This document shows, in pieces, positions 2,915 to 36,018 of a DNA stretch of 64,000 nucleotides. The DNA is from Bacteroidota bacterium (lineage in GTDB: Bacteria; Bacteroidota; Rhodothermia; Rhodothermales; UBA10348). The stretch lies in assembly GCA_029262855.1 (NCBI GenBank), contig JAJCYP010000076.1:4784-68783 (forward strand), given 5' to 3'. The stretch's first letter is position 1; each line of letters starts with the position of its first letter. The position numbers and the translations under genes are program-made. The notes below the pieces were generated by a model. The model made no database searches and had not been told where the DNA came from. It was given only the letters and a program-made list of their open reading frames with translations.

Positions 2915-3838
2915 ATGGAGCAGCGAGTTTGTACTGGAAATGTAGCGCGATTGGCCGTCGGTTTCCTTCTCGCGTCGGTGGGAGCAGGATGTGGTGGGAA
3001 TCAGAGCGTCCCTCAGGTCGACTTCATGAGAGCCGAGGTGGAGCGGCCAGCCTCCGCGCCCGACAAGGAGCGTCCGCTGACTATGGCGGTTTCCGCGATG
3101 ACGTCGCCTCGACAGACTCTTCGCTACTACGACCAGATAGCCCTGGCCATCTCAACCGATCTGGATCGCCCGGTGCAACTGGTCCAGAGGCGCACCTACC
3201 AAGAGGTCAACGACCTCCTCCGGACCGGCCAGGTCGATGTGGCCTTCATCTGCTCTGGCGCCTACGTCGCTGCCCGGGAGGAATTTGACCTTGATCTGCT
3301 GGCCATCCCGCAGATAAATGGGCGCACGACGTACCGGTCCTACATCATCGCGGGGCCTGGCGTCGAGGGCGAGCGCTTTGATGACCTCAAGGGTCGGTCC
3401 TTCGCATTCACGGACCCGTTGTCGAACACCGGGTATCTGTATCCGATGTCGCGACTTGCCGATTCAGGCGAGAGCGCTGAGGTCTTTTTCACCGAGACCC
3501 GATTCACTCACGCGCACGACTACTCGATTCGCGCGGTGCGTCTCGGGACCGTAGATGCAGCGGCGGTGGAGTCACCGGTCTTCGAGTTCATGCGAAAGTC
3601 CGCCCCGGAGGAATTGGCAGGGATCCGTGTGATCGAGATCTCTCCAGAATACGGAATGCCGCCGGTGGTCGCGCCGGCCTCATTGGCGATTGAGGAGCGA
3701 GTGGCCCTGCGGCGTGTCCTGCTGAGAATGCATGGTGACTCACTCGGCCGAGCCGCGCTTTCCGCGTTGCACATCGACCGTTTCCGCGAGGGGGATCCGG
3801 CCGCGTACGACGGGATCCCTGCCCTGCCTGGATCATGA
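2915..3838 (+). CDS. PhnD-like periplasmic substrate-binding protein; lipoprotein-type signal; AioX/ArxX-like sensor partner
   Basis: The 307-aa ORF begins MEQRV...LAVGFLLASVGAGCGG (signal peptide plus Cys). The body resembles phosphonate/phosphite-binding PhnD-family proteins. Its stop overlaps the start of the kinase gene (ATGA). Confidence 0.65.
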   Translation: MEQRVCTGNVARLAVGFLLASVGAGCGGNQSVPQVDFMRAEVERPASAPDKERPLTMAVSAMTSPRQTLRYYDQIALAISTDLDRPVQLVQRRTYQEVNDLLRTGQVDVAFICSGAYVAAREEFDLDLLAIPQINGRTTYRSYIIAGPGVEGERFDDLKGRSFAFTDPLSNTGYLYPMSRLADSGESAEVFFTETRFTHAHDYSIRAVRLGTVDAAAVESPVFEFMRKSAPEELAGIRVIEISPEYGMPPVVAPASLAIEERVALRRVLLRMHGDSLGRAALSALHIDRFREGDPAAYDGIPALPGS

Positions 3839-5352
3839 GCGAAGGACGAAAACGGCTGCACATCCCGATTTTTTGGAAAATTAGCCTGGCGATCGTCTTC
3901 GTGGTCGCGGCTTTCGGATCGGTCAACCTCTACCTGATCCGGCAGAGGGTGACCGACACCGTGATCAAGCAGGCGGTCTACCGGGTCTCCACGCAGGCCG
4001 CTACGTTGGCGGAGTTGCTGCAAAAGGCTCTGTTGTACGATGACCTCATCGAGGTTCGCGAGCAGTTGGTGGACGTCGTTCGGGTTGACTCTACCCTGCA
4101 CTACGCTCTCGTTCTGGGTGCGCACGGTCGAGTGCTCGCGCACACCTTCGAACGGGGAGTACCGTCTGGCCTACCAGAGACCATCCGCGACTCCGATACG
4201 GCCACCGTCTTTCGGCGGACAGACACGGACGAACGGCTGGTCAATGTAAGTGCACTCATTCTGGGCGGACGCCTTGGAGAAGTCCACGTCGGGATGTCTT
4301 TGACATCTATCAACCGGCTTTCGGATGTCGTCCTCCAGACGTTCCTGCTCATGATAGCCGCTTTCCTCGCCACCGGGCTCGGCGGAGCGCTGTTGTTTGC
4401 CCGCTACCTGACGAATCCGGCAAAACGGATCGCGGAAACGGCATCATCGATTCGGCTCGACGAGCTTGGACAGGGCCGCCCTCCAAGTGTTCGGATCCGC
4501 ACGGGGCTTACGAGGGTGCTCCCAGGCGTTCCGCGGGTGGTAGACGAGATGGACATACTCGCTGACCGGTTCAACGAAATGTTGGAGCGACTCGACGGGG
4601 CCTACGCAGAACTCACTGTCGCCCAGGCCATGGCGTTGCGCTCTGAGAAGCTCGCGACAATCGGCACCCTGGCCGCTGGCATCGCCCATGAAGTGAACAA
4701 CCCCGTTGCAGGGATTCGAAACTGCGTTCGACGCATGCGCGAAAACCCCGAGAACGAGGAGCAACGTCAGAGGTACCTGAGTTTGATGGACCGCGCAGCC
4801 GAGCGCATTGGTCGGGTCGTGAGTAGCCTGCTACAGTTTTCCAGAATCCAGGACCAACCATACGCGCCGGTTTCCATCGGGGACGTGGTGGAGCGTGCGA
4901 TGGTTCTCGTGGTCCATCAACTTGAACAGAGCGCCATCTCGGTATCGAAGCGACTGGCCAAGGACGCTCCCATGGTGATGGGTAACGGCGGTGAACTGGA
5001 GCAGGTGGTGGTCAACCTCCTGGTTAACGCGATACATGCAACCGAGGACCGCAGACTGGCAAACGGCACGTTGGACACTCCTTCAAGTAGCATAATTGCT
5101 TCGGTCCGCGAGGCTGGGACAAACGTGCTATTGACCATCGAAGACCAAGGCGTGGGGATATCCGAGGAAGATCTGCAAAGCGCGTTCGATCCGTTCTTCA
5201 CTACGAAAGACTCCGAGAGGGGGACTGGGCTCGGCCTCGCGGTTTGTCGCAAGATTGTGCAGCAGCACGGCGGGAGGATTTCGCTCCGGAATTCTCATCC
5301 GCACGGCGCTGTCGCGGAAGTACTGATTCCGAAGATGAAGGCTAGCGCGTGA
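3835..5352 (+). CDS. sensor histidine kinase with periplasmic loop, HAMP, HisKA, HATPase; AioS/ArxS-like
   Basis: Two predicted TM helices flank a periplasmic domain of about 130 aa. H-box AHEVNNP, G-box DQGVGI and G2-box GTGLGL are present. It overlaps both neighbours, so translational coupling is likely. Confidence 0.8.
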   Translation: MSEGRKRLHIPIFWKISLAIVFVVAAFGSVNLYLIRQRVTDTVIKQAVYRVSTQAATLAELLQKALLYDDLIEVREQLVDVVRVDSTLHYALVLGAHGRVLAHTFERGVPSGLPETIRDSDTATVFRRTDTDERLVNVSALILGGRLGEVHVGMSLTSINRLSDVVLQTFLLMIAAFLATGLGGALLFARYLTNPAKRIAETASSIRLDELGQGRPPSVRIRTGLTRVLPGVPRVVDEMDILADRFNEMLERLDGAYAELTVAQAMALRSEKLATIGTLAAGIAHEVNNPVAGIRNCVRRMRENPENEEQRQRYLSLMDRAAERIGRVVSSLLQFSRIQDQPYAPVSIGDVVERAMVLVVHQLEQSAISVSKRLAKDAPMVMGNGGELEQVVVNLLVNAIHATEDRRLANGTLDTPSSSIIASVREAGTNVLLTIEDQGVGISEEDLQSAFDPFFTTKDSERGTGLGLAVCRKIVQQHGGRISLRNSHPHGAVAEVLIPKMKASA

Positions 5353-6680
5353 TGTCTCAGAAGCTGATCTACGTCGTCGATGACGAGGAAATCATTCGCC
5401 TGACATTGGCGGATGACCTGGCGGACGCGGGTTTCGAGGTTGAGGCGTTTACTGGTGCACGCGACTGCATGGCAGCGGCAACCGCTCGTCGGCCCGACGC
5501 AGTCGTGAGCGACGTCCGTATGCCGGGCATCGACGGCATGGCCCTGCTCAGGCGATTGAAGGAGTTGCATCCGGAGACCTGCGTTATTCTAATGACCGCA
5601 TTCGGTACCGTCGACACTGCCGTTGAGGCGATGAAGGCGGGAGCATTCGATTACGTCACCAAGCCCTTCGACCTCGACGAGCTCCTGATCCTCTTGTCCC
5701 GCGCCTTTGAGTTAGTCGGCAGCCGAAAGGAAATCCGTAGCCTCCGAGACCGATTGGGCGAGAATCATTCGCCAGAGTCCTACCTGGGCTCCAGCAAGAC
5801 GGCGGCGGAGACACGACGTCTTCTGCAGGAAGTGGCGGTCACCGAGGCGACCGTCCTCCTTGTTGGTGAAACCGGAACCGGCAAAGAACTGGCCGCCGGC
5901 GTCATTCATCACAGAAGCGGGCGTGCCTCCTCGCCCTTCATTCGAGTGAGTTGCGCCGTGCTTTCCAGGGAGGTATTCGAAAGCGAGCTGTTCGGCCACG
6001 TCAAGGGGGCATTCACCGGTGCCGAAAGGTCCCGCGGAGGACGATTTCAGGCAGGGAACGGGGGAAGCGTGCTGCTGGATGATATCGATGACATTCCACT
6101 CGACCTTCAGGTCAAACTACTTAGGGTACTTCAGGAACGAGAGGTAGAACCCGTCGGGGCGAGCCATCCTGTGCCGATAGACGTCCGAGTGATTGCCGCT
6201 ACGAAGAAGGACCTCGGCGAACTGGTCCGCCAGGGAAGTTTTCGGGAGGACCTGTACTACCGACTCAACGTGCTCCCGGTGGTTCTGCCTCCCTTGAGGG
6301 AGCGCCCGGAAGACATCCCTGACCTGGTTTTTCACTTCGCACGACAGATGGGTTGCCGGGCGGACGCGTTCTCCGAACAAGCGATCGCACGCCTCTGCTC
6401 GCACGACTGGCCGGGCAACGTGAGGGAACTGCGCAATGCGGTCGAGAGGATGGTGCTACTATCTGGAGGCCGCTGTATAGATATCGACAGGGTCCCCAGC
6501 GAAATCTCCACCTCGACCGGCGCGGAACCCCGATCTCTTGAAGCGCGGGTGGCGGCATTTGAGCGTGGGCTCATCGAGCAGGCGCTCGATCGATCAGGAG
6601 GGAATCGCGCAGAGGCGGCTCGTTTCCTCCAAATTCCTGCTTCCACACTAAGGAGCAAGCTGGGCAAGCACGAGCTGTAG
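5352..6680 (+). CDS. sigma-54-dependent response regulator (NtrC family: REC + AAA+ + Fis-type HTH); AioR/ArxR-like
   Basis: Receiver domain (VVDDEEIIRL...DVRMPGIDG). Walker A GETGTGKE, the GAFTGA sigma-54 contact motif, and a C-terminal HTH. The ATG overlaps the kinase TGA. Confidence 0.85.
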   Translation: MSQKLIYVVDDEEIIRLTLADDLADAGFEVEAFTGARDCMAAATARRPDAVVSDVRMPGIDGMALLRRLKELHPETCVILMTAFGTVDTAVEAMKAGAFDYVTKPFDLDELLILLSRAFELVGSRKEIRSLRDRLGENHSPESYLGSSKTAAETRRLLQEVAVTEATVLLVGETGTGKELAAGVIHHRSGRASSPFIRVSCAVLSREVFESELFGHVKGAFTGAERSRGGRFQAGNGGSVLLDDIDDIPLDLQVKLLRVLQEREVEPVGASHPVPIDVRVIAATKKDLGELVRQGSFREDLYYRLNVLPVVLPPLRERPEDIPDLVFHFARQMGCRADAFSEQAIARLCSHDWPGNVRELRNAVERMVLLSGGRCIDIDRVPSEISTSTGAEPRSLEARVAAFERGLIEQALDRSGGNRAEAARFLQIPASTLRSKLGKHEL

Positions 6681-6860
6681 GATGCGCGAGGATTCGCGGT
6701 TACCCTCCAAATATCGCGCCCTTCCTCTTTGCCGAACCGACCTGCGAGATGGAGCTAAGTCGTGCAAACACATGCCCATGATGAGGTTACGTGAATAGCC
6801 TGGCCCCGATCGGTACGCGATTCGTTTGCGGGGCCAGTCCGAGTCATCTCTGCCGTCCTC

Positions 6861-7853
6861 ATGACACAATCGAAGCCCTCGCTCCAGGACCGTTTCGGAC
6901 GGAGGCACACGTACCTTCGCCTTGCGGTTACCGAGCGTTGCAACCTCCGATGCCAATATTGCATGCCGGAGGAGGGATCCCCCAAGCGCTCCACGAACGC
7001 CTACCTGTCCGATCACGAGATCCTGACGGCGGTCGCGGCACTTGCGAGGACCGGGGTTGACCGCGTACGGCTCACGGGGGGTGAGCCGCTGGTTCGAAAG
7101 AACGTTCTGACCCTCGCCAGGCAACTCCGCGCCTGTGAGGGCATTGAGTCGGTTCGGTTGACGTCGAACGGCCTGCTACTCGGTCGGCACCTGCCGGAAC
7201 TGTTAGAGTCCGGAATCGACACGGTCAACGTCAGTCTCGATACGCTTCGTCCGAAGCGCTTCGAGCATATCACCGGTGGCACGGGTCACTCCACGATCCT
7301 GAGAGCAATCGACGACCTGATCGCAACCGGTGTCGTTCGGACAAAAATCAACGTCGTGTTAATGGCCGGAGTGAATGATGACGAGGTCGAGGACCTCGTC
7401 GCGTTCGTCCAGGATCGTCCGGTCGACATACGGTTCATTGAATTCATGCCCTTCGTTCAGAACGGCTGGAGCAAGGATCGGTACGTAGCTGAGCACATCA
7501 TCGTTGAGCGGCTTCGGCGGCGGTTCTCACTGAAGGTGGCGCCCACCGCAAAGAACGACACAGCCGTGATGTACCGAATTGCCGGCCATAGCGGCCGCAT
7601 CGGGTTCATCTCATCTGTTTCCAGCCCGTTCTGTCGAAACTGCAATCGACTACGGATTTCGGCGACCGGCCAATTCAGATCCTGCCTGTTTGGTGCGCCT
7701 AGCCTGGACCTGCGGAGTTTGCTCCGAGGTGGTGGGGATGAGAACGTGATTACTTCGGCCGTGCGCGGCGCCCTGCTTGGCAAGCACTGGGCTCACGATG
7801 GAAGACGGTCCTCGTCCGAAGCGGGTGCCCCGATGATCGCGATTGGCGGCTAA
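6861..7853 (+). CDS. moaA: GTP 3',8-cyclase MoaA (radical SAM, molybdenum cofactor biosynthesis)
   Basis: N-terminal CNLRCQYC radical-SAM motif and TGGEPL. MoaA family length (330 aa). Confidence 0.85.
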   Translation: MTQSKPSLQDRFGRRHTYLRLAVTERCNLRCQYCMPEEGSPKRSTNAYLSDHEILTAVAALARTGVDRVRLTGGEPLVRKNVLTLARQLRACEGIESVRLTSNGLLLGRHLPELLESGIDTVNVSLDTLRPKRFEHITGGTGHSTILRAIDDLIATGVVRTKINVVLMAGVNDDEVEDLVAFVQDRPVDIRFIEFMPFVQNGWSKDRYVAEHIIVERLRRRFSLKVAPTAKNDTAVMYRIAGHSGRIGFISSVSSPFCRNCNRLRISATGQFRSCLFGAPSLDLRSLLRGGGDENVITSAVRGALLGKHWAHDGRRSSSEAGAPMIAIGG

Positions 7854-8098
7854 GACGGGCCCCCGCGGACAAGCCGCTGTCAGTTGACTCAGACGGGGGG
7901 CGGCCTCGACTGTTCGGGTCGGTGGGCGATCGCAGTGGTCTCTTCTCACAACCCAGCGCCGAGTCGGCAACCGGCGGGGTTTCGCTCGCACGACGCGAAA
8001 TCTCGCGCATGCATTTGGGTCAACCCCGAAAGCGATGACTGGATATGGGGTTGTAAAACATGGACTTGACGGTCCTTTCCGATTCACTCGGGCCCAAA

Positions 8099-8113
8099 CG
8101 GCACGCTGTTGGT
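8099..8113 (+). promoter_or_regulatory. weak candidate sigma-54 (-24/-12) promoter upstream of the porin gene
   Basis: CGGCACG-N4-TGGT, 55-70 nt upstream of the ATG at 8167. The -24 half matches GGCACG well. The -12 half reads GT instead of the near-invariant GC. Confidence 0.2.
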
Positions 8114-8166
8114 GAAGAGGCTGACGAACCCAAACGAGACTCTTCGCCTCACGACCATAGACAGAC

Positions 8167-9177
8167 ATGAAAACCAAATACGTCCTGTTTTCTCTGGCCC
8201 TGCTGATCACCCTGCCGGCAGTGGCGCAGAACACGAAGATCAGCGGTTACATGTTCGGCGACGCGTACTACGTGGCCGCGGCTCCCGACGAAGACCTCGA
8301 AGGTAGAAGCGGCTTCCAATTCCGCCGAATTTACGTGACCCTGGACAGCGGTATCTCTGAGAACTTCGATACGAGGTTCCGCATCGAGGCAGCACACCCG
8401 GGCGACTTCACCACCAAAGCCAAAATGACGCCGATCGTCAAGGACGCCTATCTCCGTTGGAAAAAATCGGGCCACTCGGTCTATTTCGGACTGTCATCCA
8501 CACCAACCTGGTCGCGTCTGGAGTCCTTCTGGGGGTTCCGGTCGGTTGAGAAGACCCCGCTGGACCTGTACAAGTACGGCTCCTCACGCGACTTCGGCAT
8601 CGCGGCCAAGGGTCCTCTCGGATCGAGTGGCCGGCTGTCCTACCACGCGATGGTAGCGAACGGATCGGGTACGTCCTCGGAGACCAATGACGGCAAGAAG
8701 GCGCTGCTCTCGCTGGCTGTCGAAATGGTTGATGGTCTCACCTTTGAGGCCTACGGTGATTTTGAAGGCCTCGAGGGCGACACGGACCGGTCGACGCTCC
8801 AGGGCGCGCTCATGTACGGCGCGGACTGGGGGCGCGTTGGGCTCAGCTTCGCCCGTCACTCCCGCGGAGTTGCGGATGCAGATGCGATGACATTCGATGT
8901 GGCATCGGCCTTCATTGCTGCCGCCGTGTCGGATCGCAGCGATGCCTTCGTCAGGGTCGATCATCAGTTCGATCCCAACCCGTCAGCTGCCGGGATCTCA
9001 TATGTGCCGTTCGCGACGGCCGATGCGACGACTTTCCTGGTTGCCGGACTATCGATCAAGGCCGCAGACAACGTCTTTCTCCAGCCGAACGTGGAGCTGG
9101 TCTCCTACAGCATGGACACGGGAGACGCCCCTGCCGCGACGGTCATCCCTCGAATCACGGTCTACTTCAAACACTAG
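8167..9177 (+). CDS. outer membrane porin (signal peptide, beta-barrel, C-terminal ...YFKH)
   Basis: Signal peptide MKTKYVLFSLALLITLPAVAQ. Amphipathic beta-strand pattern throughout. The C-terminus has an aromatic residue at position -3. Confidence 0.6.
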   Translation: MKTKYVLFSLALLITLPAVAQNTKISGYMFGDAYYVAAAPDEDLEGRSGFQFRRIYVTLDSGISENFDTRFRIEAAHPGDFTTKAKMTPIVKDAYLRWKKSGHSVYFGLSSTPTWSRLESFWGFRSVEKTPLDLYKYGSSRDFGIAAKGPLGSSGRLSYHAMVANGSGTSSETNDGKKALLSLAVEMVDGLTFEAYGDFEGLEGDTDRSTLQGALMYGADWGRVGLSFARHSRGVADADAMTFDVASAFIAAAVSDRSDAFVRVDHQFDPNPSAAGISYVPFATADATTFLVAGLSIKAADNVFLQPNVELVSYSMDTGDAPAATVIPRITVYFKH

Positions 9178-9228
9178 AAGCCTCGCCGTAGGGTCACATT
9201 AATACTTCGCATTGGGAGGTCAATCAGA

Positions 9229-10179
9229 ATGGATCCGGAAATTGTCTATAACGTCCAGCAGGGCTTCTTCTGGGACTGGAAGGTCGCACTAGACCTCTTC
9301 CTCGGAGGAGCCGGAGTCGGTGCCTTCCTCGTTTCCGTGGGCCTGTATGAGTTTTGGGGTCGGAAGTACAAGCGCATCCCGCAGACAGCGGCATTTCTTG
9401 CGCCGGTTCTGGTCGGCGTTGGGGTTCTCATACTGATGCTAAAGCTCGGGCGACCCTTCCACATTTTTGAGACGTTCATCAACTTCGCGCCAACAGCTCC
9501 TCTCTGGTGGGGAGGCGTGTTCCAGACGCTCTTTATCGCGGGAGCGTTGTGGTACGCGCTTCTCTGGAGGGACTTGGAGCCCAATCCCAAGCGTAGGAAG
9601 CTCGGCCTGGCCTTGACGCCCCTAGCGCTGATTGTGGGTGGTTATCACGGGATGCTGCTCGCGGTAATTCCAGCGCGACCGCTGTGGAATACAGGACCGA
9701 CTGTACTCGCCGCCCTCGCCGCGTTTGTGACCACCGGTATCGCGGCCGTCATGCTTGTGCACCTGATCCGGATGAAGCTCGGCGGCCGTCTGGCGGATCC
9801 AGAGCACGTGCAGACCTTCCTGACCGATCTGACTCCGGTCAGACATGTGCTTGTGGGCGGGCTGATTCTCCAGTTAGGGACCTTCTTTCTCTGGTGGCAG
9901 AGCCTTCGCTTCGGAGATCTCGCGGATCGAACGGCGCTCGCCGTCGCCAACGCGGGCTTCGGGCCGATGTACTGGTGGCTGGGGATTGGCGTGGGTCTTG
10001 TGCTCCCGATAATTCTGGGGGTCGCCGCGGTCTGGAAGGACAGCCCCGAATACAATCCGCGGCGCCTGGTCTGGACAGTCGGAGTCGCGAGTTGTTTGAT
10101 ACTCGTGGGGGGGTTCTTCTTCCGCCTTTCTGTCGTCCTTGCAGGGCAACTCAACCCGCTGTACGTCACGCTCCCGTAG
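9229..10179 (+). CDS. NrfD/PsrC-family membrane anchor subunit of a molybdopterin oxidoreductase (ArrC/ArxC-like)
   Basis: 316 aa, polytopic with about 8 TM helices, NrfD-like. SD-like GGGAGG upstream. Lies immediately upstream of the catalytic subunit. Confidence 0.7.
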   Translation: MDPEIVYNVQQGFFWDWKVALDLFLGGAGVGAFLVSVGLYEFWGRKYKRIPQTAAFLAPVLVGVGVLILMLKLGRPFHIFETFINFAPTAPLWWGGVFQTLFIAGALWYALLWRDLEPNPKRRKLGLALTPLALIVGGYHGMLLAVIPARPLWNTGPTVLAALAAFVTTGIAAVMLVHLIRMKLGGRLADPEHVQTFLTDLTPVRHVLVGGLILQLGTFFLWWQSLRFGDLADRTALAVANAGFGPMYWWLGIGVGLVLPIILGVAAVWKDSPEYNPRRLVWTVGVASCLILVGGFFFRLSVVLAGQLNPLYVTLP

Positions 10180-10186
10180 AGAAGCC

Positions 10187-12763
10187 ATGATTAACCAAAA
10201 TGATATCACCATGACCGGGAAGGGTCTCTCCCGCCGCAGCTTTCTTAAGCGGACGAGTTGTGTTGGCGGGCTCGCGATTATCGGCGGTTCCCCGCTTTTG
10301 ACCTTCTTTACCGAGGACACCTCGGCCCAGCCCGCTGCACTCTTGGCTCGATGGGTAGCTTCTACCTGCCAGGGTTGCACAAGCTGGTGCCCAGTGGTGG
10401 TCAAAGTGGTGGACGGCCGCGTCGTCCACCTGGCTGGCAACCCTGAGTCGAAGGCAAACCATGGGAAAATCTGCCCACGGCCGAACCTCGCGCTTCAGCA
10501 GGTCTATGATCCGGACCGGCTGAAGACGCCCATGCGGCGCACGAATCCCAGGAAGGGACGGGACGAGGACCCGCAGTTCGTGCCCATCAGCTGGAATGAG
10601 GCCATGGGTCTTATCGCCGACAAAATGATGGAACTCCGCGAGAACGAGGAGACCCACAAATTCGTTTTCTTCCGGGGGCGCTACAGCTACAACCGCGACA
10701 TCATCTACAGCTCGGTGCCCAAGATATTCGGGTCGCCCAACGGCATTAGCCACTCTGCCATCTGTGCCGAGGCAGAGAAGTTTGGCGCCTACTACACGGA
10801 GGGCTACTGGGACTACCGCGACTACGACCTCGAACACACGCGATACGTGCTGTGCTGGGGTGCCGATCCGCTCTCATCAAACCGTCAAGTCCCGCACGCC
10901 ATCAACATTTGGGGCCATGTTCGCGACCGCGCAGAGATTGCTGTCATTGATCCTCGACTCTCAGCCACGGCTGCGAAAGCAAACGAGTGGCTCCCCGTAC
11001 TTCCCGGGGAAGACGGTGCCTTGGCTGTGGCCATGGCACATGTCATCTTGCGGGAGGGCCTCTGGAGCCGGGAGTTCGTGGGCAACTTTGCGGACGGAAC
11101 CAACCGGTTCCTCCCCGGCCAGACCGTGGACGAGCAGACCTTCGAGGAGATTCACACCAACGGCGTCGTGCGCTGGTGGAACCTGGAACTGAAGGATCGG
11201 ACGCCCGAGTGGGCGGAGACCCAGTGCGGCATTCCGGCAGACCAGATCCACCGTGTGGCAACCGGATTCGCGAAGGCGGCGCCAGCTGCCATCAGTTGGG
11301 TGTCTCCCGGCGCATCCATGCAGGCCAGAGGCGGGTATGCCGCCCTTGCAGCTCACGCCTTGAATGGCCTGGTCGGGTCCGCCGACAGTCAAGGCGGCAC
11401 CGTCCAAAAAACCAAGGTGCCAGCAGATGCCCTGCCCGACTTTTCGGCCTACCAGGACGACTTGGCCAAGAAGCTGTCAAAGAAACCGAAGATGGATCGG
11501 CGGGGCAGCCTTTCATTCCCAGCGCTTAATGCTGGAAAGAGCGGTGGTGGCGTCGTAACAAACAACGCGGCCGACTCCATTCTGAACGAGGATCCCTACG
11601 AGATCAAGGTGGCGATTGCCAACTGGGCCAACTTCGCCTTCTCGTGCTCGGGATCGGACCGCTGGGAACGTGCGCTCTCGAAACTGCCGTTCTTCGTGCA
11701 TATCACGACAAACCCGTCAGAGACCAGTCATTTTGCGGATATCGTACTCCCGGCGGCCCACCAGCTCTTCGAGAAATGGAGCTTCCTCAAATCGAAGCAG
11801 AACCTGCACGGCTACGCTAGCCTCACACAACCCATGATCGAGCCTCTCTGGGACGTCCGTCAGGACGAAACGGAGGTGCCCTGGTTGCTGGCCGAGGCGC
11901 TCGCGGAGCGCGGGTTCGACAACATGCTACGGTATTTCCAGGAGGCTTTTGCCGATCCCGAGACCGGGCAGCATCCAAGGACCAGCGCCGAGTTTGCCCT
12001 GACGTCCACGAAGATGTTCACCAGCCCGTGCTGGCATTCGGCCCACAAGGACTACGGAAAGTATGGGGACGCTCTGAACGGCTGGGACGACTTCGTGAAG
12101 AAGGGTGTGTGGAACTCGCACCGATTTGAAACGGGGAAGACGTGGGGCAAGTTCGGCACCGTCACGGGTCGCTTCGAATTCTACAGCGAAACACTGAAGA
12201 AGGCGCTCCAGGGCCACGCCGACAAGCACGGGGTGGGAATCGATGACGTGCTGGCGGCGACCAACTACACCGCTACCGGCGAGTTGGCCTTCTTGCCGCA
12301 TTTCGAGCCCGCGCTGCGGTGGGGCGATCCGTCGGAATTCCCGCTCATCTTCTTCGAACACCGGAGCCGTCTGAACCGCGAGGGTCGCTCGGCGAACTGC
12401 ACCTGGTACCAAGCCCACAAGGACGCTGACCCGGGCGACGAGAACTGGGACGATGTGCTGAAAATGAACCCGGTCGACGCGGAGCGACTCAATCTCACAG
12501 ACCGCGCAATGGTGCGGGTGGTTTCGACCACGGGTGAGATCACCGTAAGGCTGAAGCTATGGGAGGGCGTCCGCCCGGGCACCGTGGCTAAGTGCTACGG
12601 ACAAGGCCACTGGGCCTATGGACGAGTCGCGGCCACCGATTTTCAGCGGCGCATCCCTCGCGGCGGGAACAACAACGTGATCCTTCCCGCCGAGTACGAG
12701 CGGTTGAGTGGCTCGACCGCCCGCCACGGCGGCGTCGCTCGCGTAAAGGTCATCGCTGCATAA
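10187..12763 (+). CDS. molybdopterin (bis-MGD) oxidoreductase catalytic subunit, TAT-exported; Psr/Phs/Arr/Arx clade (candidate ArrA/ArxA)
   Basis: Twin-arginine leader SRRSFLK. N-terminal [4Fe-4S] motif C-X2-C-X3-C-X27-C (CQGCTSWC...27...C). About 860 aa. Followed by Fe-S and TorD subunits. The ATG at 10187 is preferred over the upstream ATG at 10139. Confidence 0.8.
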   Translation: MINQNDITMTGKGLSRRSFLKRTSCVGGLAIIGGSPLLTFFTEDTSAQPAALLARWVASTCQGCTSWCPVVVKVVDGRVVHLAGNPESKANHGKICPRPNLALQQVYDPDRLKTPMRRTNPRKGRDEDPQFVPISWNEAMGLIADKMMELRENEETHKFVFFRGRYSYNRDIIYSSVPKIFGSPNGISHSAICAEAEKFGAYYTEGYWDYRDYDLEHTRYVLCWGADPLSSNRQVPHAINIWGHVRDRAEIAVIDPRLSATAAKANEWLPVLPGEDGALAVAMAHVILREGLWSREFVGNFADGTNRFLPGQTVDEQTFEEIHTNGVVRWWNLELKDRTPEWAETQCGIPADQIHRVATGFAKAAPAAISWVSPGASMQARGGYAALAAHALNGLVGSADSQGGTVQKTKVPADALPDFSAYQDDLAKKLSKKPKMDRRGSLSFPALNAGKSGGGVVTNNAADSILNEDPYEIKVAIANWANFAFSCSGSDRWERALSKLPFFVHITTNPSETSHFADIVLPAAHQLFEKWSFLKSKQNLHGYASLTQPMIEPLWDVRQDETEVPWLLAEALAERGFDNMLRYFQEAFADPETGQHPRTSAEFALTSTKMFTSPCWHSAHKDYGKYGDALNGWDDFVKKGVWNSHRFETGKTWGKFGTVTGRFEFYSETLKKALQGHADKHGVGIDDVLAATNYTATGELAFLPHFEPALRWGDPSEFPLIFFEHRSRLNREGRSANCTWYQAHKDADPGDENWDDVLKMNPVDAERLNLTDRAMVRVVSTTGEITVRLKLWEGVRPGTVAKCYGQGHWAYGRVAATDFQRRIPRGGNNNVILPAEYERLSGSTARHGGVARVKVIAA

Positions 12764-12784
12764 CGGACCAAGGAGATACAAGAA

Positions 12785-13477
12785 ATGGCAAAGCGATATG
12801 GCATGGTGATCGACCTCCACAAGTGTGTGGGGTGTGCGGGTTGCGACATTGCCTGCAAGTCCGAGAACAACGTTACGGACGGTTTCGCGTGGTCCAACCA
12901 CATTTTGGAAACCCACGGTACCTTTCCCGATGTTCAATTCCGGTACATCCCGACGCTGTGTAATCACTGCGAGGACGCGCCGTGCGTGGCGAACTGTCCA
13001 ACCACGGCGATGCACAAGTCGGAGGACGGGCTGACACTCCACGATGCTTCGAAGTGCATTGGCTGCCGAGCATGCCAGGTAGCATGTCCCTACGGCGTAA
13101 TCTACTTCAATGAGAAAGCGCCTCATCCGCGCTTCATGGAAGACGACGAGGCCCTGATCCCAGGAGTTACGTCAACCGGGCAGGAGACTGCCGAGGCATC
13201 CGGAGCTCCGATTCCATACTACAACCCGGCGCGGGCTGAAACATATCCGGACATCCGACCGAAGGGGATTGTAGAGAAGTGCACGTTCTGCGACCACCGG
13301 CTTGCCAAAGGGGAGTTGCCCGCCTGCGTCGATGCATGCCCGGCCGATGCCCGTCTATTCGGTGATCTGGATGATCCGAATAGCGCTCCGGCCCAAGCGC
13401 TGGCCAAGCACGATTCCGATGTGCTGAAGCCAGAGCAGGGCACGAAGCCTCGCGTTTTCTACATTCGCGACTACTAA
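12785..13477 (+). CDS. 4Fe-4S ferredoxin-type electron-transfer subunit (PsrB/ArrB/NrfC-like)
   Basis: Four Cys clusters: CVGCAGCDIAC, CNHCEDAPCVANCP, CIGCRACQVACP, CTFCDHR..CVDACP. Strong SD AAGGAGA upstream. Confidence 0.85.
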   Translation: MAKRYGMVIDLHKCVGCAGCDIACKSENNVTDGFAWSNHILETHGTFPDVQFRYIPTLCNHCEDAPCVANCPTTAMHKSEDGLTLHDASKCIGCRACQVACPYGVIYFNEKAPHPRFMEDDEALIPGVTSTGQETAEASGAPIPYYNPARAETYPDIRPKGIVEKCTFCDHRLAKGELPACVDACPADARLFGDLDDPNSAPAQALAKHDSDVLKPEQGTKPRVFYIRDY

Positions 13478-13490
13478 CAAAGAGGTTGCC

Positions 13491-14117
13491 ATGGAGGAGT
13501 CCGCTGTCGAAACGGTTGTGCTGGATCAGGCCAGTCTTTTCTTCGCCTTGGCGCGCGCACTCGAAGAACCAAGGAAGTGGGGTGATGATCTCCCCTCAAT
13601 CATTCGCGCAGGGCTGGGTACAGGCCTCCCGCCCCTATCGACGCTCGGAGAGCGGCTGGCCGTCGAAGCCGGTGAGGCGCTTTCCGAGAGGGAGCAGATG
13701 TCGATTGAGCACGCCAGGTTGTTTGTGGGTCCGTTCGAAATAGTCGTCCCTCCCTGGGCGTCGCTTTATCTGGAAAAGGACGCCAGGCTGATGGGCGAGA
13801 TCAGCCAGCAAGCGGCGCGTGCTTACGCCGAGGCTGGGCTCGCGCCGGCGGCCGACCTCAGGGAGGCGCCGGACCATGTAACGCATGAATTGGAGTTCAT
13901 GTACTACCTGGCCTTTCAGGAGGCGACCGACAAGGACGGCGTCTGGCACGCCAGGCGGGCCGCCTTCTGGGTATCCCATTTGGGCCGGTGGCTGCCGCAA
14001 CTCGCCACCAAGCTCGCGGAAGCGAGCACTCACCCGTACTATGAGTCGCTGGCCGCTGCCTTGGCAGTGATCTGCCGTCGCATGGACCTCCTCTTTACCG
14101 ATGCTACAGAGGCGTGA
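13491..14117 (+). CDS. TorD/DmsD-family redox enzyme maturation chaperone (ArrD/ArxD-like)
   Basis: 208 aa, TorD-like length and composition. Sits directly after the Fe-S subunit. Confidence 0.6.
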   Translation: MEESAVETVVLDQASLFFALARALEEPRKWGDDLPSIIRAGLGTGLPPLSTLGERLAVEAGEALSEREQMSIEHARLFVGPFEIVVPPWASLYLEKDARLMGEISQQAARAYAEAGLAPAADLREAPDHVTHELEFMYYLAFQEATDKDGVWHARRAAFWVSHLGRWLPQLATKLAEASTHPYYESLAAALAVICRRMDLLFTDATEA

Positions 14118-14482
14118 AGGGGGGTCAGGCCGAATTTAAAGCGCTTTTAATCTCGCAATGCACTATGTCTCAACTCCCTCCGCCTCCCTCCGCCTACAAC
14201 CAGTTCGTGGACCGCTATCCGGATCTTGAGAGAGCTTGGGAGAGCATGGCCAAGGCTGGCACAGATGGCCCGCTCGACGCCCGGACTCAGCGTCTTATCA
14301 AACTTGCCATTGCTGTTGGTGCCATGAGAGAAGGGGCTGTCCATGCGAGTGCCCGAAAGGGTGTCGCGATGGGCATCGAGGCCAGCGAAATGGAGCAGGT
14401 AGTAGCGCTGGCCGCGAGCACGCTGGGAATGCCCTCTACGGTCGCGGCCTTTAGCTGGGTACAAGACGTCCTGAAACCCTAA
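14114..14482 (+). CDS. carboxymuconolactone decarboxylase / AhpD-like family protein
   Basis: AhpD-like core of about 110 aa. Its start overlaps the TorD stop by 4 nt. An alternative start is MSQLPP at about 14165. Confidence 0.5.
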   Translation: MKGGQAEFKALLISQCTMSQLPPPPSAYNQFVDRYPDLERAWESMAKAGTDGPLDARTQRLIKLAIAVGAMREGAVHASARKGVAMGIEASEMEQVVALAASTLGMPSTVAAFSWVQDVLKP

Positions 14483-14564
14483 GCGGCGTTGGTACTCGGC
14501 GTGGTCATCATGGTCGCGTTGGTCATGGTTCAGATCCCCAACGACATCACGTCTGGGCTTGAGC

Positions 14565-14584
14565 GGGACCTTTTGGTCCTTTTC
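14565..14584 (+). terminator. rho-independent terminator (GGGACC-TTTT-GGTCC + TTTT)
   Basis: GC stem followed by a T-tract, between the convergent AhpD-like and arsA genes. Confidence 0.5.
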
Positions 14585-14600
14585 GCCTGCCTGGTGGTTG

Positions 14601-16445
14601 TTACCCACGGTCCAGGAAGACTGGCGATGGGAGAATAGCTCGCTCGCCTCGTTTGCCAAATGCCTGGGCCTGTGGCCCGAGCGCCACGGAGAGATCACCC
14701 ACATACTCGGTTAGAGCGTCAACGCCGGACAGTTCCTTTGCCATCCAGGGCACCAGAAAGGTCCGTGTCGCATGCGTCTTGGCTACCAACTGAATTTGGC
14801 GTATCTCCGCCGCTGCCCGCGCCACGAGCAGCTTGTCCGTCGGCGACGCCGCAGCGAGGCTCTGGTTTATGACCCAGGCATACGGCGTGATGCTGGCGCG
14901 ACGGAGGTCGGCTTGCAGGCCTGCCGCCTCGAGGACAGGTGTCGTCTCAGGTAGTGTGACGATCAGCAGCTTGGTGTATGCGGGATCCTGCAGGCGCATC
15001 AGTGGGGTGGTGGCCCTTCCAGCCAGGCCGCGGGAGTTGCGCTCGACCTCTCGGTGGTAGGCGCCTGTCTGATCCAGCAGCAGCAGAGTGTGACCTGTTG
15101 GAGCGGTATCCAGCACAACGAATCCGCGCGCCGCTTCTCGCACCAGGTTCGAAAAGGCATGGAACACCGCCACTTCCTCGGTGCACGGGCTTCGGAGGTC
15201 CTCCTCGAGAAGCTTCTTGGCGTCGTCATCCAGATCCTTTCCTTTGGTGGCAAAGACGCGATCCGTGTACCTGCGAACCTCCTCCGCCGGATCAATGCGG
15301 CTCACGGTCAATCCTGGAAGGGAGCCCTTGACTGTCTGGACCAGGTGGGCGGCGGGATCGGTTGTAGAGAGATGCACGGTGTGGCCGTGCCTGGCCAACT
15401 CGACTGCCACCGCAGCGGCTATCGTCGTCTTGCCGACTCCTCCCTTTCCCATCACCACCACAAGTCCTTTTCCGGCGGCCTCGATATCCTGAACAAGGTC
15501 CGCGAGGGACGGGAGCTGCGGTGGCGCGGGAGGTTGGGCGGTGGCGGCTGGGCCGCCTGATACGCCAGACGCCAAGGCCCTCAGATGGGCGAGGCCGACC
15601 AGGTTGTGCGGCTGCAGTGGCACCGTATCGATGGGCAGTGACCGGAGTTCGGAGGGCAAGTTGTCCATCGCCGCCACCTGCCTGCGCTGCATGCCGGCGG
15701 CAAGTGGATCAGTCGACTCCGTGAGTGAAAAGACACCGTTGACCACGAGCCGCTGGCTCAATATGCCGAGATCTGCCAGCTCGTGGGCGGTCCGGGCGGC
15801 CTCGTTGAGAGCAGCCGGTTCGGGTCGGGTGACCAAGACCAGCGTCGTCGTCGCGGGATCGCGCAGCGAGTCGACGGCGGCGGCGTACTGTACGCGCTGA
15901 GACTGGAGTCCAGAGGCGGGGCCAAGGCACGATGCCCCGTCTGGGTTCGTGTCAATGAAATCGCCCCAGGCTGCGGGCAGTTGAAGCAGACGGAGTGTGT
16001 GTCCGGTCGGCGCGGTGTCGAAGACCACGTGGTCGAAGTCCTCCATCAGCGAGGCATCCGTCAGCAGCCGGGTGAAGGCATCGAACGAGGCGATCTCGGT
16101 TGTACAGGCGCCAGACAGACTTTCGGTGATCTGCTCAATAGCCGCAGGTGGGAGGAGCTGTCGAACGGGTTCTATCACGCGGTCACGATAGGCCTGAGCC
16201 GCTGCTTCCGGATCGATATTGACTACGTCAAGAAGCGGCACGCCCGACACACTCCGTACCTCGTGAGTGACCTCCGTCTCAAGCACCTGACCCAGATTGG
16301 ATGCAGGGTCGGTCGAAACCAGCAGCACGCGATGACCCTGGTCTGCCAGGGCAACAGCCGTAGATGTGGCAAGAGTAGTCTTGCCAACGCCGCCCTTGCC
16401 GGTGAAGAAAAGGTATCTCGTGGGCGATGTGATGAGAGTACGCAT
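14601..16445 (-). CDS. arsA: arsenical pump-driving ATPase ArsA (two homologous halves)
   Basis: Two P-loops GKGGVGKTT (the N-half reads MRTLITSPTRYLFFTGKGGVGKTT), DTAPTGH motifs in both halves, about 614 aa. Start taken at the internal ATG at 16445 that precedes the P-loop. Confidence 0.9.
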   Translation of the reverse strand: MRTLITSPTRYLFFTGKGGVGKTTLATSTAVALADQGHRVLLVSTDPASNLGQVLETEVTHEVRSVSGVPLLDVVNIDPEAAAQAYRDRVIEPVRQLLPPAAIEQITESLSGACTTEIASFDAFTRLLTDASLMEDFDHVVFDTAPTGHTLRLLQLPAAWGDFIDTNPDGASCLGPASGLQSQRVQYAAAVDSLRDPATTTLVLVTRPEPAALNEAARTAHELADLGILSQRLVVNGVFSLTESTDPLAAGMQRRQVAAMDNLPSELRSLPIDTVPLQPHNLVGLAHLRALASGVSGGPAATAQPPAPPQLPSLADLVQDIEAAGKGLVVVMGKGGVGKTTIAAAVAVELARHGHTVHLSTTDPAAHLVQTVKGSLPGLTVSRIDPAEEVRRYTDRVFATKGKDLDDDAKKLLEEDLRSPCTEEVAVFHAFSNLVREAARGFVVLDTAPTGHTLLLLDQTGAYHREVERNSRGLAGRATTPLMRLQDPAYTKLLIVTLPETTPVLEAAGLQADLRRASITPYAWVINQSLAAASPTDKLLVARAAAEIRQIQLVAKTHATRTFLVPWMAKELSGVDALTEYVGDLSVALGPQAQAFGKRGERAILPSPVFLDRG

Positions 16446-16482
16446 GGCGGGCACCAAGGGTGTTTCGTCGATCAGTCGTGGA

Positions 16483-16872
16483 TCAGCAGCAATCCGAACC
16501 GCTGTCCCCACAGCACGTCTCGGAGGTGACTTGCGCCGGGGTCTCCCGTCCACTGGCCCTACCGGACGGGCCGAATTGCAGGAGATGCGCCATTTCCACT
16601 AGGGACGGATGGCACCCCCGACTTACGATGAGACCATCCACGAGGAGGAGTGGCAGAACATCCATCCCTTCTGTGGTGATGGTCTGGTAAACCAGCGGAT
16701 GATTGACGAACGCGTCGGGGTTCGTGGCGAGGTTGAATCGTGATACTTCCGTGCCGAGGGCGGCCACCGATTTCAGGTCGGCGGCAAACTGAACCAGAAC
16801 GGGATCCGGATCACTTCCGCAAAGGCCAGTGGAGCAGCACATGGCAGGTTCGAATACCTGGAGATGAGGCAT
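16483..16872 (-). CDS. arsD: arsenic metallochaperone / trans-acting repressor ArsD
   Basis: MPHLQVFEPAMCCSTGLCG is the ArsD Cys12/Cys13/Cys18 motif. 129 aa. Start is the internal Met of the ORF-track ORF. Confidence 0.85.
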   Translation of the reverse strand: MPHLQVFEPAMCCSTGLCGSDPDPVLVQFAADLKSVAALGTEVSRFNLATNPDAFVNHPLVYQTITTEGMDVLPLLLVDGLIVSRGCHPSLVEMAHLLQFGPSGRASGRETPAQVTSETCCGDSGSDCC

Positions 16873-16904: not shown

Positions 16905-17276
16905 CTATTGTTGGTCGTGGAGGGAAGCCAAAGCGACCTCGGGCATGCAGCGAGCCTTCTCGCCCCTGTCCAGTACTTGTCCCAAAATGGAATCCAGGCC
17001 TTCTCGGAGGCGGAGTAGTTGCTGGCGGTCCAGGCAGTAGCAAGTTCGCTGCCCGTCCGTGTGGCTCACCACGAGGCCGGCCTGCTTGAGCACCTTGAGG
17101 TGCTGCGAAACAGTTGATTGCGCCAGAGGCAGCGCCTCAACGAGTGCGCCACACACGCATGCGTCTGCTTCCGCCAGCTCACGCAGTATGGCGAGCCGGG
17201 CCGGGTGGGCCAGGGCCTTCGCGCCTTCGGCTATACCACCGAGCAAATCGGGAAAAAGGTCAGCTTTGGACTGCAT
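16905..17276 (-). CDS. arsR: ArsR/SmtB-family metalloregulator
   Basis: HTH with the metal-binding CVC (ADACVCGALVEAL). First gene of the arsR-arsD-arsA operon. Confidence 0.85.
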   Translation of the reverse strand: MQSKADLFPDLLGGIAEGAKALAHPARLAILRELAEADACVCGALVEALPLAQSTVSQHLKVLKQAGLVVSHTDGQRTCYCLDRQQLLRLREGLDSILGQVLDRGEKARCMPEVALASLHDQQ

Positions 17277-19285: not shown

Positions 19286-20722
19286 ATGTCGGATTGCTGC
19301 AGCATTGAAAATGACCCCGCTGAGATGGCAGACCTCTTGATCATTGGTGGCGGCTCGGCGGCGTTCGCCGCCGCGATTGAGACCAGCACACTTGCAGGCA
19401 CGGCCGTGATCTTCAACGAAGGACTACCTGTCGGTGGAACGTGCGTCAATGTCGGCTGCGTCCCCAGTAAGGCCATGATCCGGGCGGCCGAAGCGGTCCA
19501 CCGCGCGAACGTCCAGCGGTTCGAGGGCGTGGCAACGAGCGCCCGGGTGTCCGACTTCTCGGCGGTAACGCGTCATACCACCGCGCTCGTTGAGGAGCTG
19601 CGCGACCAGAAGTACCTGAACATCATCGGGGGCGATGAGAATATCCGGCTGGTCGAGGCGCGCGCTCGTCTCATCGAACCGGGAGTGGTCGAAGCTGACG
19701 GGGCTCGCTACCGGGGGCGAAATGTGCTGATTGCTACCGGGGCGCGGCCGGCACTTCCCGCGATCCCTGGACTGGACACGGTTCCTGTCTTGACCAACGA
19801 AGACCTCTACCAGTTGGAGGTTCTCCCCGAGCACCTCATTGTCATCGGCGGCCGCTACATCGCCCTGGAAAACGCCCAGATGATGGCACGCCTCGGGAGC
19901 CGGGTCACCGTTCTTCAGCGGTCCGCGCGGATCCTCCCCACCGAGGCTCCAGAGATAACGGACGCCCTGACCGACCTTCTACGGGCCGAGGGTATCGAGG
20001 TGCTGACCGGCACCGCCATACAGTCCGTGGCGCCGGGCCCGGCCGGTGTGTCCGTCCAGGTTCTGGTTGATGGTGAGCCAACCCAGATCCAAGGCACACA
20101 CCTGTTCATGGCAACCGGCCGTCACGGCAACACGGAGGATCTCGGACTCGAGACGCTGGGAATCGCCACCGATGGAAGCGGCTACCTGAACACGGGCCCC
20201 GATCTTAGGACCTCGGTTCCGACCGTGCTGGGCGCCGGCGATGTGCTGGGCGACAACCAGTTCGTGTACACGGCGGCCTACGAAGGGAAGCTGGCCGCGC
20301 AGAACGCCTTCCGCGGGGGCAGCGCCCGTGCGGACTATTCCGTGCTTCCTTGGGTGGTGTTCACAGACCCTCAGGTGGCTGGCGTTGGCCTGGACGAGCA
20401 GCAGGCAGCGGCGGCCGGCATCGCGGTCGATGTATCCACGATTGGGCTGGATATGGTGCCTCGGGCCATCGCCGCTCGGGACACCCGTGGGTTCATCACG
20501 CTGATCCGGAATCGTTCGACCGACGTGCTCGTTGGCGCCCGCATTCTCGCGCCCGAGGGCTCGGAGCTGCTCATGGAGGTCGCACTGGCCATTCGGCACC
20601 GCGTCACCGTCGACAGCCTGAAGTCCATGTTCCACCCCTACCTCACCATGTCGGAAGGCATCAAACTGGCGGCGATTTCCTTCGACAAGAGTGTGGGCAA
20701 ACTCAGCTGCTGCGCGGCGTGA
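19286..20722 (+). CDS. merA: mercuric reductase MerA (core only, no N-terminal HMA domain)
   Basis: FAD site GGGSAAF, redox-active GGTCVNVGCVPSK, C-terminal vicinal Cys ...LSCCAA. Confidence 0.9.
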   Translation: MSDCCSIENDPAEMADLLIIGGGSAAFAAAIETSTLAGTAVIFNEGLPVGGTCVNVGCVPSKAMIRAAEAVHRANVQRFEGVATSARVSDFSAVTRHTTALVEELRDQKYLNIIGGDENIRLVEARARLIEPGVVEADGARYRGRNVLIATGARPALPAIPGLDTVPVLTNEDLYQLEVLPEHLIVIGGRYIALENAQMMARLGSRVTVLQRSARILPTEAPEITDALTDLLRAEGIEVLTGTAIQSVAPGPAGVSVQVLVDGEPTQIQGTHLFMATGRHGNTEDLGLETLGIATDGSGYLNTGPDLRTSVPTVLGAGDVLGDNQFVYTAAYEGKLAAQNAFRGGSARADYSVLPWVVFTDPQVAGVGLDEQQAAAAGIAVDVSTIGLDMVPRAIAARDTRGFITLIRNRSTDVLVGARILAPEGSELLMEVALAIRHRVTVDSLKSMFHPYLTMSEGIKLAAISFDKSVGKLSCCAA

Positions 20723-34214: not shown

Positions 34215-34269
34215 GATGACATCACGATCAAACGCAGACCGCCTCCTCCCACTGAGACCCCTGAATCCG

Positions 34270-35995: not shown

Positions 35996-36018
35996 TTCTC
36001 GCCCTAAACGGATGGAGA

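Follow-up and report, generated by a model that had tools for sequence, protein, structure and literature searches.

A putative arrCABD respiratory arsenate reductase locus with a co-encoded phosphate-porin-like protein in a probable Rhodothermales bacterium

The 64-kb stretch of contig JAJCYP010000076.1 analyzed here (the window) contains, between positions 8167 and 14482, six open reading frames (ORFs) on the plus strand that encode a porin, an NrfD-type membrane protein, a molybdopterin oxidoreductase, a 4Fe-4S protein, a TorD-type chaperone, and a small protein of the CMD family. An earlier reading of the letters alone (the sequence-only reading) had proposed an operon of these genes, and the ORF list and profile searches agreed with it in coordinates and domains; the operon is real and was correctly delimited. 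From the porin gene through the CMD gene, the gaps between consecutive genes are 51, 7, 21, 13, and -4 nucleotides (nt), and the genes therefore form an operon-like block. The order membrane anchor, catalytic subunit, Fe-S subunit, chaperone (C-A-B-D) was likewise confirmed by the domains. As detailed below, the locus very probably encodes a membrane-anchored respiratory arsenate reductase, that is, a quinol:arsenate oxidoreductase (arrCABD), with ArrXSR-type control and an outer-membrane channel of its own, in a probable Rhodothermales bacterium.

The predicted catalytic subunit of the arsenate reductase, ArrA (10187 to 12763, plus strand), has the domains Molybdop_Fe4S4, Molybdopterin, and Molydop_binding and would be a protein with a molybdenum-bis(pyranopterin guanine dinucleotide) cofactor (Mo-bisPGD) that is exported by the twin-arginine translocation (Tat) system. 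The listed ORF opens at TTG 10139, but the gene call on an identical contig of a Logan assembly and the NCBI-sourced protein P0001 both start at ATG 10187 (numbers with P denote proteins and numbers with L denote loci of our data set). From this start, the N terminus reads MINQNDITMTGKGLSRRSFLK, with the Tat motif SRRSFLK, and the cluster motif C-X2-C-X3-C-X27-C is found at residues 61 to 96 (CQGCTSWC-X27-C), with the spacing of ArrA from Shewanella ANA-3. The twin-arginine leader and the exact cysteine spacing, both pointed out before, were thus verified directly in the sequence. The context of the fourth cysteine (KICPRP) had been called unusual, but the crystallized ANA-3 ArrA reads SSCPRQ there and CPR is common to both. 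Window ArrA aligned with ANA-3 ArrA (PDB 6cz7) from end to end with 979 bits and 52.5% identity over 796 amino acids (aa), whereas the second-best structure, the polysulfide/thiosulfate reductase of Thermus (2vpw), gave 158 bits. With ArrA-type proteins of Firmicutes and Sulfurospirillum the identity was 57 to 65%, and with ArrA of Mesobacillus selenatarsenatis SF-1 and of metagenome-assembled genomes (MAGs) of Desulfitobacterium and Desulfosporosinus it was about 61%; in sequence, the protein is nearer to the sampled ArrA-type proteins of Firmicutes (60 to 65%) than to ANA-3 ArrA (52.5%). Among the NCBIfam models, ArrA (NF041714) scored 1124.6 bits, PhsA 255, DmsA/YnfE 188, and TtrA 73.

The remaining subunits fit this assignment. 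ArrC (9229 to 10179, plus strand; PF03916, 98.6 bits) is a predicted NrfD/PsrC-type integral-membrane anchor with at least six strong transmembrane segments that would oxidize quinol, and its gene directly precedes arrA in almost every close relative. ArrB (12785 to 13477, plus strand), the putative electron-transfer subunit, has 4Fe-4S dicluster domains (NF041715, 337 bits) and aligned with ANA-3 ArrB (6cz7_B) from end to end with 310.9 bits. Its 16 cysteines are arranged in four motifs for four [4Fe-4S] clusters, and, judged from the sequence, it has no signal peptide. All cluster and active-site residues needed for the electron path are present in ArrA and ArrB. ArrD (13491 to 14117, plus strand; Nitrate_red_del/TorD, PF02613, 90 bits) belongs to the TorD/NarJ-type chaperones and would act in Tat proofreading and cofactor insertion; its gene follows arrB in most related loci.

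The sequence-only reading had left the enzyme as Arr/Arx-type. If it were Arx-like, or if an Arr enzyme ran in reverse and fed electrons into the quinone pool, the complex would work as an anaerobic arsenite oxidase, which we consider unlikely. PMC6549141, citing Glasser 2018, gives xGRGWG in ArxA and (R/K)GRY in ArrA as the discriminating motif. The window protein carries FRGRYS, and RGRY is shared by ANA-3 and every clade member sampled. Moreover, seven positions of ANA-3 ArrA (R165, Y166, H189, S190, C193, K198, and Y210; numbering checked against the chain of the structure) are identical, 7/7, in window ArrA and in the sampled clade members. C193 is reported to be the Mo ligand, and the other six are reported to be arsenate-site residues (Glasser et al. 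2018). The question of the Mo ligand, raised by the sequence-only reading, is answered by the alignment: the cysteine is conserved.

To have an ArxA for comparison, 150 representatives of clusters at 50% identity were screened for the motif. Only P0150 and a fragment, P0226, had GRGWG at this position. The context of P0150 is a divergent gene for a PhnD-like X protein and then B2 (a 392-aa ferredoxin), A, B, an NrfD-type C, and a TorD-type D; because of this arx gene context and the GRGWG motif, P0150 was taken as ArxA. It is 35% identical to window ArrA and keeps 5 of the 7 ANA-3 active-site positions, with G at 166 and M at 198, where window ArrA keeps Y166 and K198. No second Fe-S gene (arxB2) was found among the ORFs of the locus, whose order is porin-C-A-B-D and not B2-A-B-C-D. 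ArxA identity was rejected on the grounds of the motif, the missing arxB2, the gene order, the low identity, and a position outside ArxA in the tree.

The tree was calculated by neighbor joining (NJ) from Kimura-corrected p-distances (776 columns, 200 bootstraps), and the clades of the 50% clusters were labelled by gene context and by the published ArrA/ArxA motif. Window ArrA paired with a sequence from a Gemmatimonadota MAG (100%), and this pair formed a further 100% clade with sequences from Rhodothermales, Planctomycetota, Thermoanaerobaculia, Thalassobacterium, Halomonas, and Azohydromonas. This Gram-negative clade was nested among the ArrA-type sequences of Desulfitobacterium, Desulfosporosinus, Tepidibacillus, Mesobacillus SF-1, Sulfurospirillum, and Shewanella ANA-3, and a 100% split separated the ArrA-type sequences from a side with ArxA and the Psr-like outgroups. 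ArxA has been described as a distinct, basal, monophyletic clade (PMC7331816), with which this split agrees. The placement that the sequence-only reading had asked for is thus inside ArrA and apart from ArxA and the Psr-like outgroups; the position among Psr, Phs, or Ttr proteins that it had named as contrary to its proposal was not seen. Of the "Arr/Arx-type" label, the arsenic-linked lineage stands and the Arx part falls: by motif, 7/7 active-site residues, gene order, and NJ tree, the catalytic subunit is predicted to be an ArrA-type arsenate reductase and not ArxA. A tblastn search for named ArrA and ArxA on plasmids gave a single, irrelevant match of 36% in Cereibacter.

Upstream of the operon, three genes on the plus strand encode a putative regulatory module. 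The first product (2915 to 3838; PF12974, 189.6 bits) is an ArrX-like periplasmic oxyanion sensor of the PhnD/Phosphonate-bd fold with one N-terminal hydrophobic segment; its best PDB match was ArrX of Chrysiogenes arsenatis (6x6b) with 175.7 bits, and AioX gave 149.9 bits. It is followed by an ArrS-like sensor histidine kinase (3835 to 5352) with HisKA, HATPase_c, and weak HAMP domains and transmembrane segments at residues 16 to 34 and 170 to 188, and by an ArrR-like sigma-54-dependent response regulator (5349 to 6680) with Response_reg, Sigma54_activat, AAA_lid_14, and HTH_8 domains. The arrS gene shares 4 nt with each of its neighbors, the X and R genes. The sequence-only reading had called this module AioXSR-like; the architecture was confirmed, but with ArrX scoring above AioX and arrXSR already described as a module (PMC5908839), ArrXSR is the better name. 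The binding-pocket residues of X are conserved across ArrX, AioX, and ArxX and do not decide ligand specificity (PMC5908839). It is here that an arsenite oxidase gains some ground: the XSR sensor family also controls the aio and arx arsenite oxidases, the margin of ArrX over AioX is small, and the X protein of the window shows an identity of about 40% to its counterparts, whether these come from arr, arx, or aio loci. In addition, one related locus (L005) has arrCABD beside aioBA, and aerobic and facultative organisms, such as Halomonas and Azohydromonas, belong to the clade. Against this stand RGRY, the retained Y166 and K198, the C-A-B-D order lacking arxB2, and the 100% split from the ArxA representative. 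Rhodothermales use menaquinone, which favors arsenate reduction as well.

We infer that ArrR regulates the operon. A sigma-54 candidate of the -24/-12 type, CGGCACgctgtTGGTG (8098 to 8113, plus strand), lies about 55 nt before the ATG of the porin gene; it agrees with 7 of 11 consensus positions, has a good -24 and a poor -12 element, and is below the set threshold. In four related loci (L028, L013, L023, and L036), a canonical sigma-54 sequence, TGGCAC/T-N5-TTGC, was found 60 to 130 nt upstream of the first operon gene. Scans of 6600 to 14800 for sigma-70 promoters and terminators gave results no better than shuffled sequence.

Several points weigh against the assignment to a respiratory arsenate reductase with the control and direction outlined above. 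The 1124.6 bits of window ArrA do not reach the equivalog cutoff of NF041714, which is 1600 bits. In the comparison set, however, ANA-3 ArrA (1695.7 bits) was the only one above the cutoff; the ArxA representative scored 425, and ArrA of Mesobacillus SF-1, of a Desulfitobacterium MAG, of a Sulfurospirillum MAG, and of Halomonas llamarensis scored 1110 to 1141. Since these are also below 1600 bits, the cutoff delimits a Shewanella-type subgroup and not the family. The equal scores, together with 57 to 65% identity to ArrA-type proteins of Firmicutes and Sulfurospirillum, also contradict the earlier suggestion of a divergent clade. The ArxA side of the comparison is one full-length metagenomic sequence that was assigned by motif and gene context and not by a named reference, and the tree is an NJ and not a maximum-likelihood tree. 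No sigma-54 site with at least 8 of 11 consensus positions was present in 6600 to 9300; in the lack of a convincing promoter, the link from XSR to the operon is therefore weaker in the window than in the relatives. A tblastn search of the 64-kb window with queries from a metagenome contig (L091), arsB not being among them, revealed no acr3, LMWP-type arsC, or tatA, and the membrane partner of the arsenite-pump ATPase ArsA, encoded downstream of the operon, therefore may not be encoded nearby or may be of another type. Finally, arsenate reduction in vivo, in activity as well as direction, is what we infer for an apparently uncultured genome. Arr is reported to be reversible in vitro (Richey et al. 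2009), so that an arsenite-oxidizing direction draws on this too, and sequence alone cannot fix the direction in vivo.

It is very improbable that the main substrate is another chalcogen or pnictogen compound, such as polysulfide, thiosulfate, tetrathionate, selenite, selenate, or antimonate. The nearest relatives of the arsenic enzymes in the dimethyl sulfoxide reductase family are indeed the PsrA/PhsA/SrrA and TtrA/SrdA lineages (PMC7331816), but PsrA, PhsA, or TtrA identity was excluded by the model scores given above for PhsA, DmsA/YnfE, and TtrA, all far below that of ArrA, and by the Thermus structure, which was far behind that of ANA-3. The arsenate-site residues are all identical to those of ANA-3, and the neighboring genes are arsenic genes, i.e., those for the ArrX-like sensor and arsRDA. 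Active-site drift does occur in the wider group: two of the 50%-cluster representatives, P0123 and P0126, which are 47 to 49% identical to window ArrA, have KGRS in place of (R/K)GRY and D in place of S190, and they form a subclade with 100% support within the wider ArrA group. These changes suggest an altered substrate pocket and possibly a different substrate in that subclade.

The locus was compared with the closest known systems. With ArrA of Shewanella ANA-3 ArrAB (PDB 6CZ7 to 6CZA), window ArrA shares the Tat leader, the C-X2-C-X3-C-X27-C motif, the CPR context, RGRY, and the seven residues. The ANA-3 operon is not known to include ArrC or ArrD, nor is an XSR module known there, whereas the window encodes all of these (with an NrfD-type ArrC) and, in addition, a porin and a CMD protein. 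In ANA-3 the quinol oxidase is the cytochrome CymA (PMC2762525). The arr(XSR)CABD clusters of Firmicutes and Chrysiogenes (Desulfitobacterium, Desulfosporosinus, and Mesobacillus SF-1 among them) have the order C-A-B-D or A-B-D like the window, an ArrA that is 60 to 65% identical (in the sampled Firmicutes), and a PhnD-like ArrX, including that of C. arsenatis. In the one Gram-positive-type locus that was inspected (L006), X and S go with a LuxR/GerE-type regulator, whereas the window has a sigma-54 enhancer-binding protein. Gram-positive bacteria have no outer membrane and no porin. The arxB2ABCD/arxXSR loci of the Alkalilimnicola ehrlichii type belong to the same enzyme lineage and share A, B, the NrfD-type C, the TorD-type D, and the kind of XSR module. 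In addition to the xGRGWG motif, the extra arxB2, the order B2-A-B-C-D, and an ArxA only 35% identical, they have divergently transcribed regulators; none of these features was found in the window.

When one genome was scanned for each GTDB species, 557 relatives were obtained, and the loci of the best 80 (57 to 85% identical) were searched with all window proteins by tblastn. The order C-A-B-D is almost universal in the clade, and B2 is absent from 60+ related loci. Some of the loci (L013, L023, L028, L033, L036, L080, L084, and L085) also encode XSR-type regulators that include a sigma-54 activator. Gram-positive relatives have ArrX nearby, and in the more distant, Gram-positive-type L006, the GerE-type regulator comes after the X/S pair. 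Among these best 80 of 557 relatives, window ArrA is closest to Gemmatimonadota sequences (83 to 85%), which indicates lateral exchange among sediment phyla. The clade is Gram-negative and almost entirely uncultured, and it comprises Gemmatimonadota, Planctomycetota, Rhodothermales, Acidobacteriota, Verrucomicrobia, and Halomonas, with >120 protein clusters at least 69% identical. A related locus, L005 (8873 to 22425; Gammaproteobacteria MAG GCA_034522055.1), has arrCABD, with an ArrA 75% identical to that of the window, 2.3 kb from aioBA-like arsenite oxidase genes (Rieske and Rieske_3/Molybdopterin), an AioX/AioS pair, and a gene for a Porin_4 protein; a single locus therefore encodes arsenic redox chemistry in both directions.

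The first gene of the operon (8167 to 9177, plus strand) encodes a 336-aa protein with a Sec-type signal peptide that is modelled as a 16-strand trimeric-porin barrel of the outer membrane and belongs to a phosphate-porin-like family. No above-threshold Pfam match was obtained for it: Porin_O_P (PF07396) scored 15.4 bits, below the gathering cutoff of 20.9, but the same model matched 32 of 56 tested close relatives at E<=0.01. Identity to the phosphate-selective porins OprP and OprO (Porin_O_P) and to the anion-selective Omp32/PorB is about 10 to 12%, and OprP, with 411 aa, is longer. The family is large (497 matches) and has the invariant basic residues R53, R54, R72, K92, R125, K177, R263, and R329. 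Homologues were found directly before arrC or after arrD in Rhodothermales (L022, L028, and L093), Gemmatimonadota (L011, L012, L013, L015, and L071), Acidobacteriota/Thermoanaerobaculia (L017 and L020), and an unclassified MAG (L033). On L091, a 236-kb contig, the order is X-S-R-TatA-porin-C-A-B-D, and its ArrA is 65% identical to that of the window and has RGRY. A porin tied to an arr operon was not described in the literature searched, so that the porin as first gene, which the sequence-only reading had called unusual, is unusual with respect to that literature but recurs in many MAGs. As a side observation, L091 and L033 have a small TatA/B/E gene (7816 to 8004 and ~7780 to 7920, respectively) between arrR and the porin gene, apparently as a part of the arr operon.

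The family is found in other contexts, too. A KSB1 genome (L092, GCA_011774205.1) encodes a 48%-identical porin (8001 to 9035) beside a pstSCAB-like phosphate transporter. A porin profile retrieved 80 metagenome loci, 52 of which had at least 2.5 kb of flank and were informative; the neighbors were pstC/A/B-like in 18 loci, ArrA (at least 50% identity) or ArrC in 8, and neither in 26. In an NJ tree of the porins, arr-linked and pst-linked members were interleaved. The simplest reading of these contexts is that the family forms phosphate/arsenate-type oxyanion channels, which would have been recruited into arr loci several times; arsenate is an analogue of phosphate, and such a channel fits this. 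We propose tentatively, at a likelihood a little short of even, that pst-linked porins have given rise to a dedicated outer-membrane arsenate channel, repeatedly recruited in Rhodothermales, Gemmatimonadota, Acidobacteriota, and other sediment phyla, with the cysteine-free CMD protein as a second accessory factor. If this is true, dissimilatory arsenate reduction would have its first outer-membrane component in the porin. Instead, the porin and the CMD protein may be neighbors that have no specific role in arsenate respiration, the porin being general or phosphate specific and linked by chance. We find this somewhat doubtful, but it must be taken seriously: pst-like or unrelated neighbors account for most informative loci, the tree does not sort the porins by context, the window protein is below the Porin_O_P threshold, and a porin gene of this kind is missing from the majority of arrCABD loci in the clade, among them those of Planctomycetota, Verrucomicrobia, and Halomonas. 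On the other hand, the porin gene of the window belongs to the same compact operon, with 51 nt between it and arrC, and members of the family directly adjoin arrCABD in no fewer than four groups of phylum level (Rhodothermales, Gemmatimonadota, Acidobacteriota, and unclassified). The position of the porin gene varies (-2.0 kb or +4.0 kb) while the linkage is kept, which argues for selection, and arsenate is an analogue of phosphate.

The last gene of the operon encodes a small CMD-family protein (14165 to 14482, plus strand; PF02627, 41.9 bits). The ORF opens at GTG 14114, but the likely start is ATG 14165 (Met18), which gives a protein of 105 aa with E-x3-H. The sole cysteine of the ORF (residue 16) is upstream of this start and none follows. 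The CxxC of AhpD is thus absent, and the former label "AhpD-like" has to be reduced to membership in the CMD family. Homologues, 44 to 58% identical, follow arrD or the porin gene in L011, L012, L015, L017, L022, L028, and L071, and L093 has a homologue in such a position, too. In the KSB1 genome, a CMD-family gene (2370 to 2648) is located about 5 kb away from the porin homologue with pst linkage, so that the association of CMD proteins with this porin family may not be confined to arr loci.

Genes for molybdopterin synthesis and arsenic resistance flank the operon, as had been noted before. MoaA, the GTP 3',8-cyclase of molybdopterin synthesis, is encoded at 6861 to 7853 on the plus strand (TIGR02666, 337 bits; cutoff, 284), and moaA also adjoins arr in L013, L025 to L028, and L093. 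Downstream, on the minus strand, are the genes for the arsenite-pump ATPase ArsA (14601 to 16511; TIGR04291, 794 bits; cutoff, 650; 636 aa on the identical Logan contig), the arsenic metallochaperone ArsD (16483 to 16872; PF06953, 121 bits), and an ArsR-family repressor (16905 to 17276; HTH_5 and HTH_20 domains).

These components can be combined into a model of arsenate respiration. Arsenate would cross the outer membrane via the co-encoded porin, a substrate suggested by the alternating arr and pst neighborhoods of the porin family. ArrX may bind arsenate and signal via ArrS to the sigma-54 activator ArrR, which would turn on a porin-arrCABD-CMD transcript; both the ligand and the promoter are presumed here. 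ArrA would be loaded with Mo-bisPGD, with the adjacent MoaA contributing to the precursor and ArrD serving as chaperone, and, as known for the family, the folded protein would be exported by the Tat system, presumably together with ArrB, which lacks a signal peptide. ArrC would oxidize menaquinol, and the electrons would travel via the four ArrB clusters and the single cluster of ArrA to the cysteine-ligated Mo, where arsenate would be reduced to arsenite. The arsenite produced could be handled by the products of the adjacent arsR-arsD-arsA genes.

The host is probably a Rhodothermales bacterium. This assignment is based on the flotillin gene at 59120 to 60385, which belongs to a cluster of at least 90% identity represented by a protein of a Rhodothermales MAG, and on synteny: the most syntenic arr locus is that of a Rhodothermales MAG (L028/L093), with the order X-S-R-porin-C-A-B-D-CMD-moaA. 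The exact ArrA sequence is present on a 68.8-kb NCBI contig and in the Logan assembly of SRR15505515. A hybrid sensor kinase of 1329 aa (44401 to 48390, minus strand) has Reg_prop beta-propellers, Y_Y_Y, HisKA/HATPase_c, and a receiver domain; hybrid kinases with Reg_prop and Y_Y_Y are typical of Bacteroidota-type hybrid two-component systems, and the architecture is therefore consistent with this lineage. The sequence-only reading had supposed that such a system was not described for Rhodothermota/Bacteroidota-like halophiles. The novelty for the taxon is plausible, as no description of arr in Rhodothermota was found in the literature searched, by a limited text search in which "arrA" also matches ordinary words; a halophilic host is unsupported, since D+E and K+R are nearly balanced in the window proteins and nothing points to a salt-in acidic proteome.

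Dissimilatory arsenate reduction mobilizes arsenic in sediments and aquifers, and mechanistic knowledge of it comes mostly from Shewanella, Chrysiogenes, and Firmicutes. The locus leaves the current understanding of the enzyme itself unchallenged, and what is new is limited to the probable host order, the membership in an ArrA clade that is large, Gram-negative, and uncultured, and the recurrence of accessory genes for a phosphate-porin-like and a CMD protein. The proteins of this clade are not named by the NCBI equivalog model for ArrA, and arsenate respirers of these phyla are probably undercounted in annotation-based surveys. The link to the porin raises the possibility that arsenate entry through a phosphate-type channel is a selected and regulated step.

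The window as a whole is a metal(loid)-resistance island with MerA, three resistance-nodulation-division (RND) systems, ars, and arr. The mercuric reductase MerA is encoded at 19286 to 20722 on the plus strand, 2 kb past arsR (TIGR02053, 489.8 bits; cutoff, 454.45). Three consecutive RND-type efflux systems with OEP, HlyD, and ACR_tran components extend from 23088 to 42053. Within them, an ORF of 1504 aa with a TTG start (29700 to 34214) has a complete ACR_tran fused to an OEP domain and is an unusual fusion of pump and channel or else a read-through artifact.

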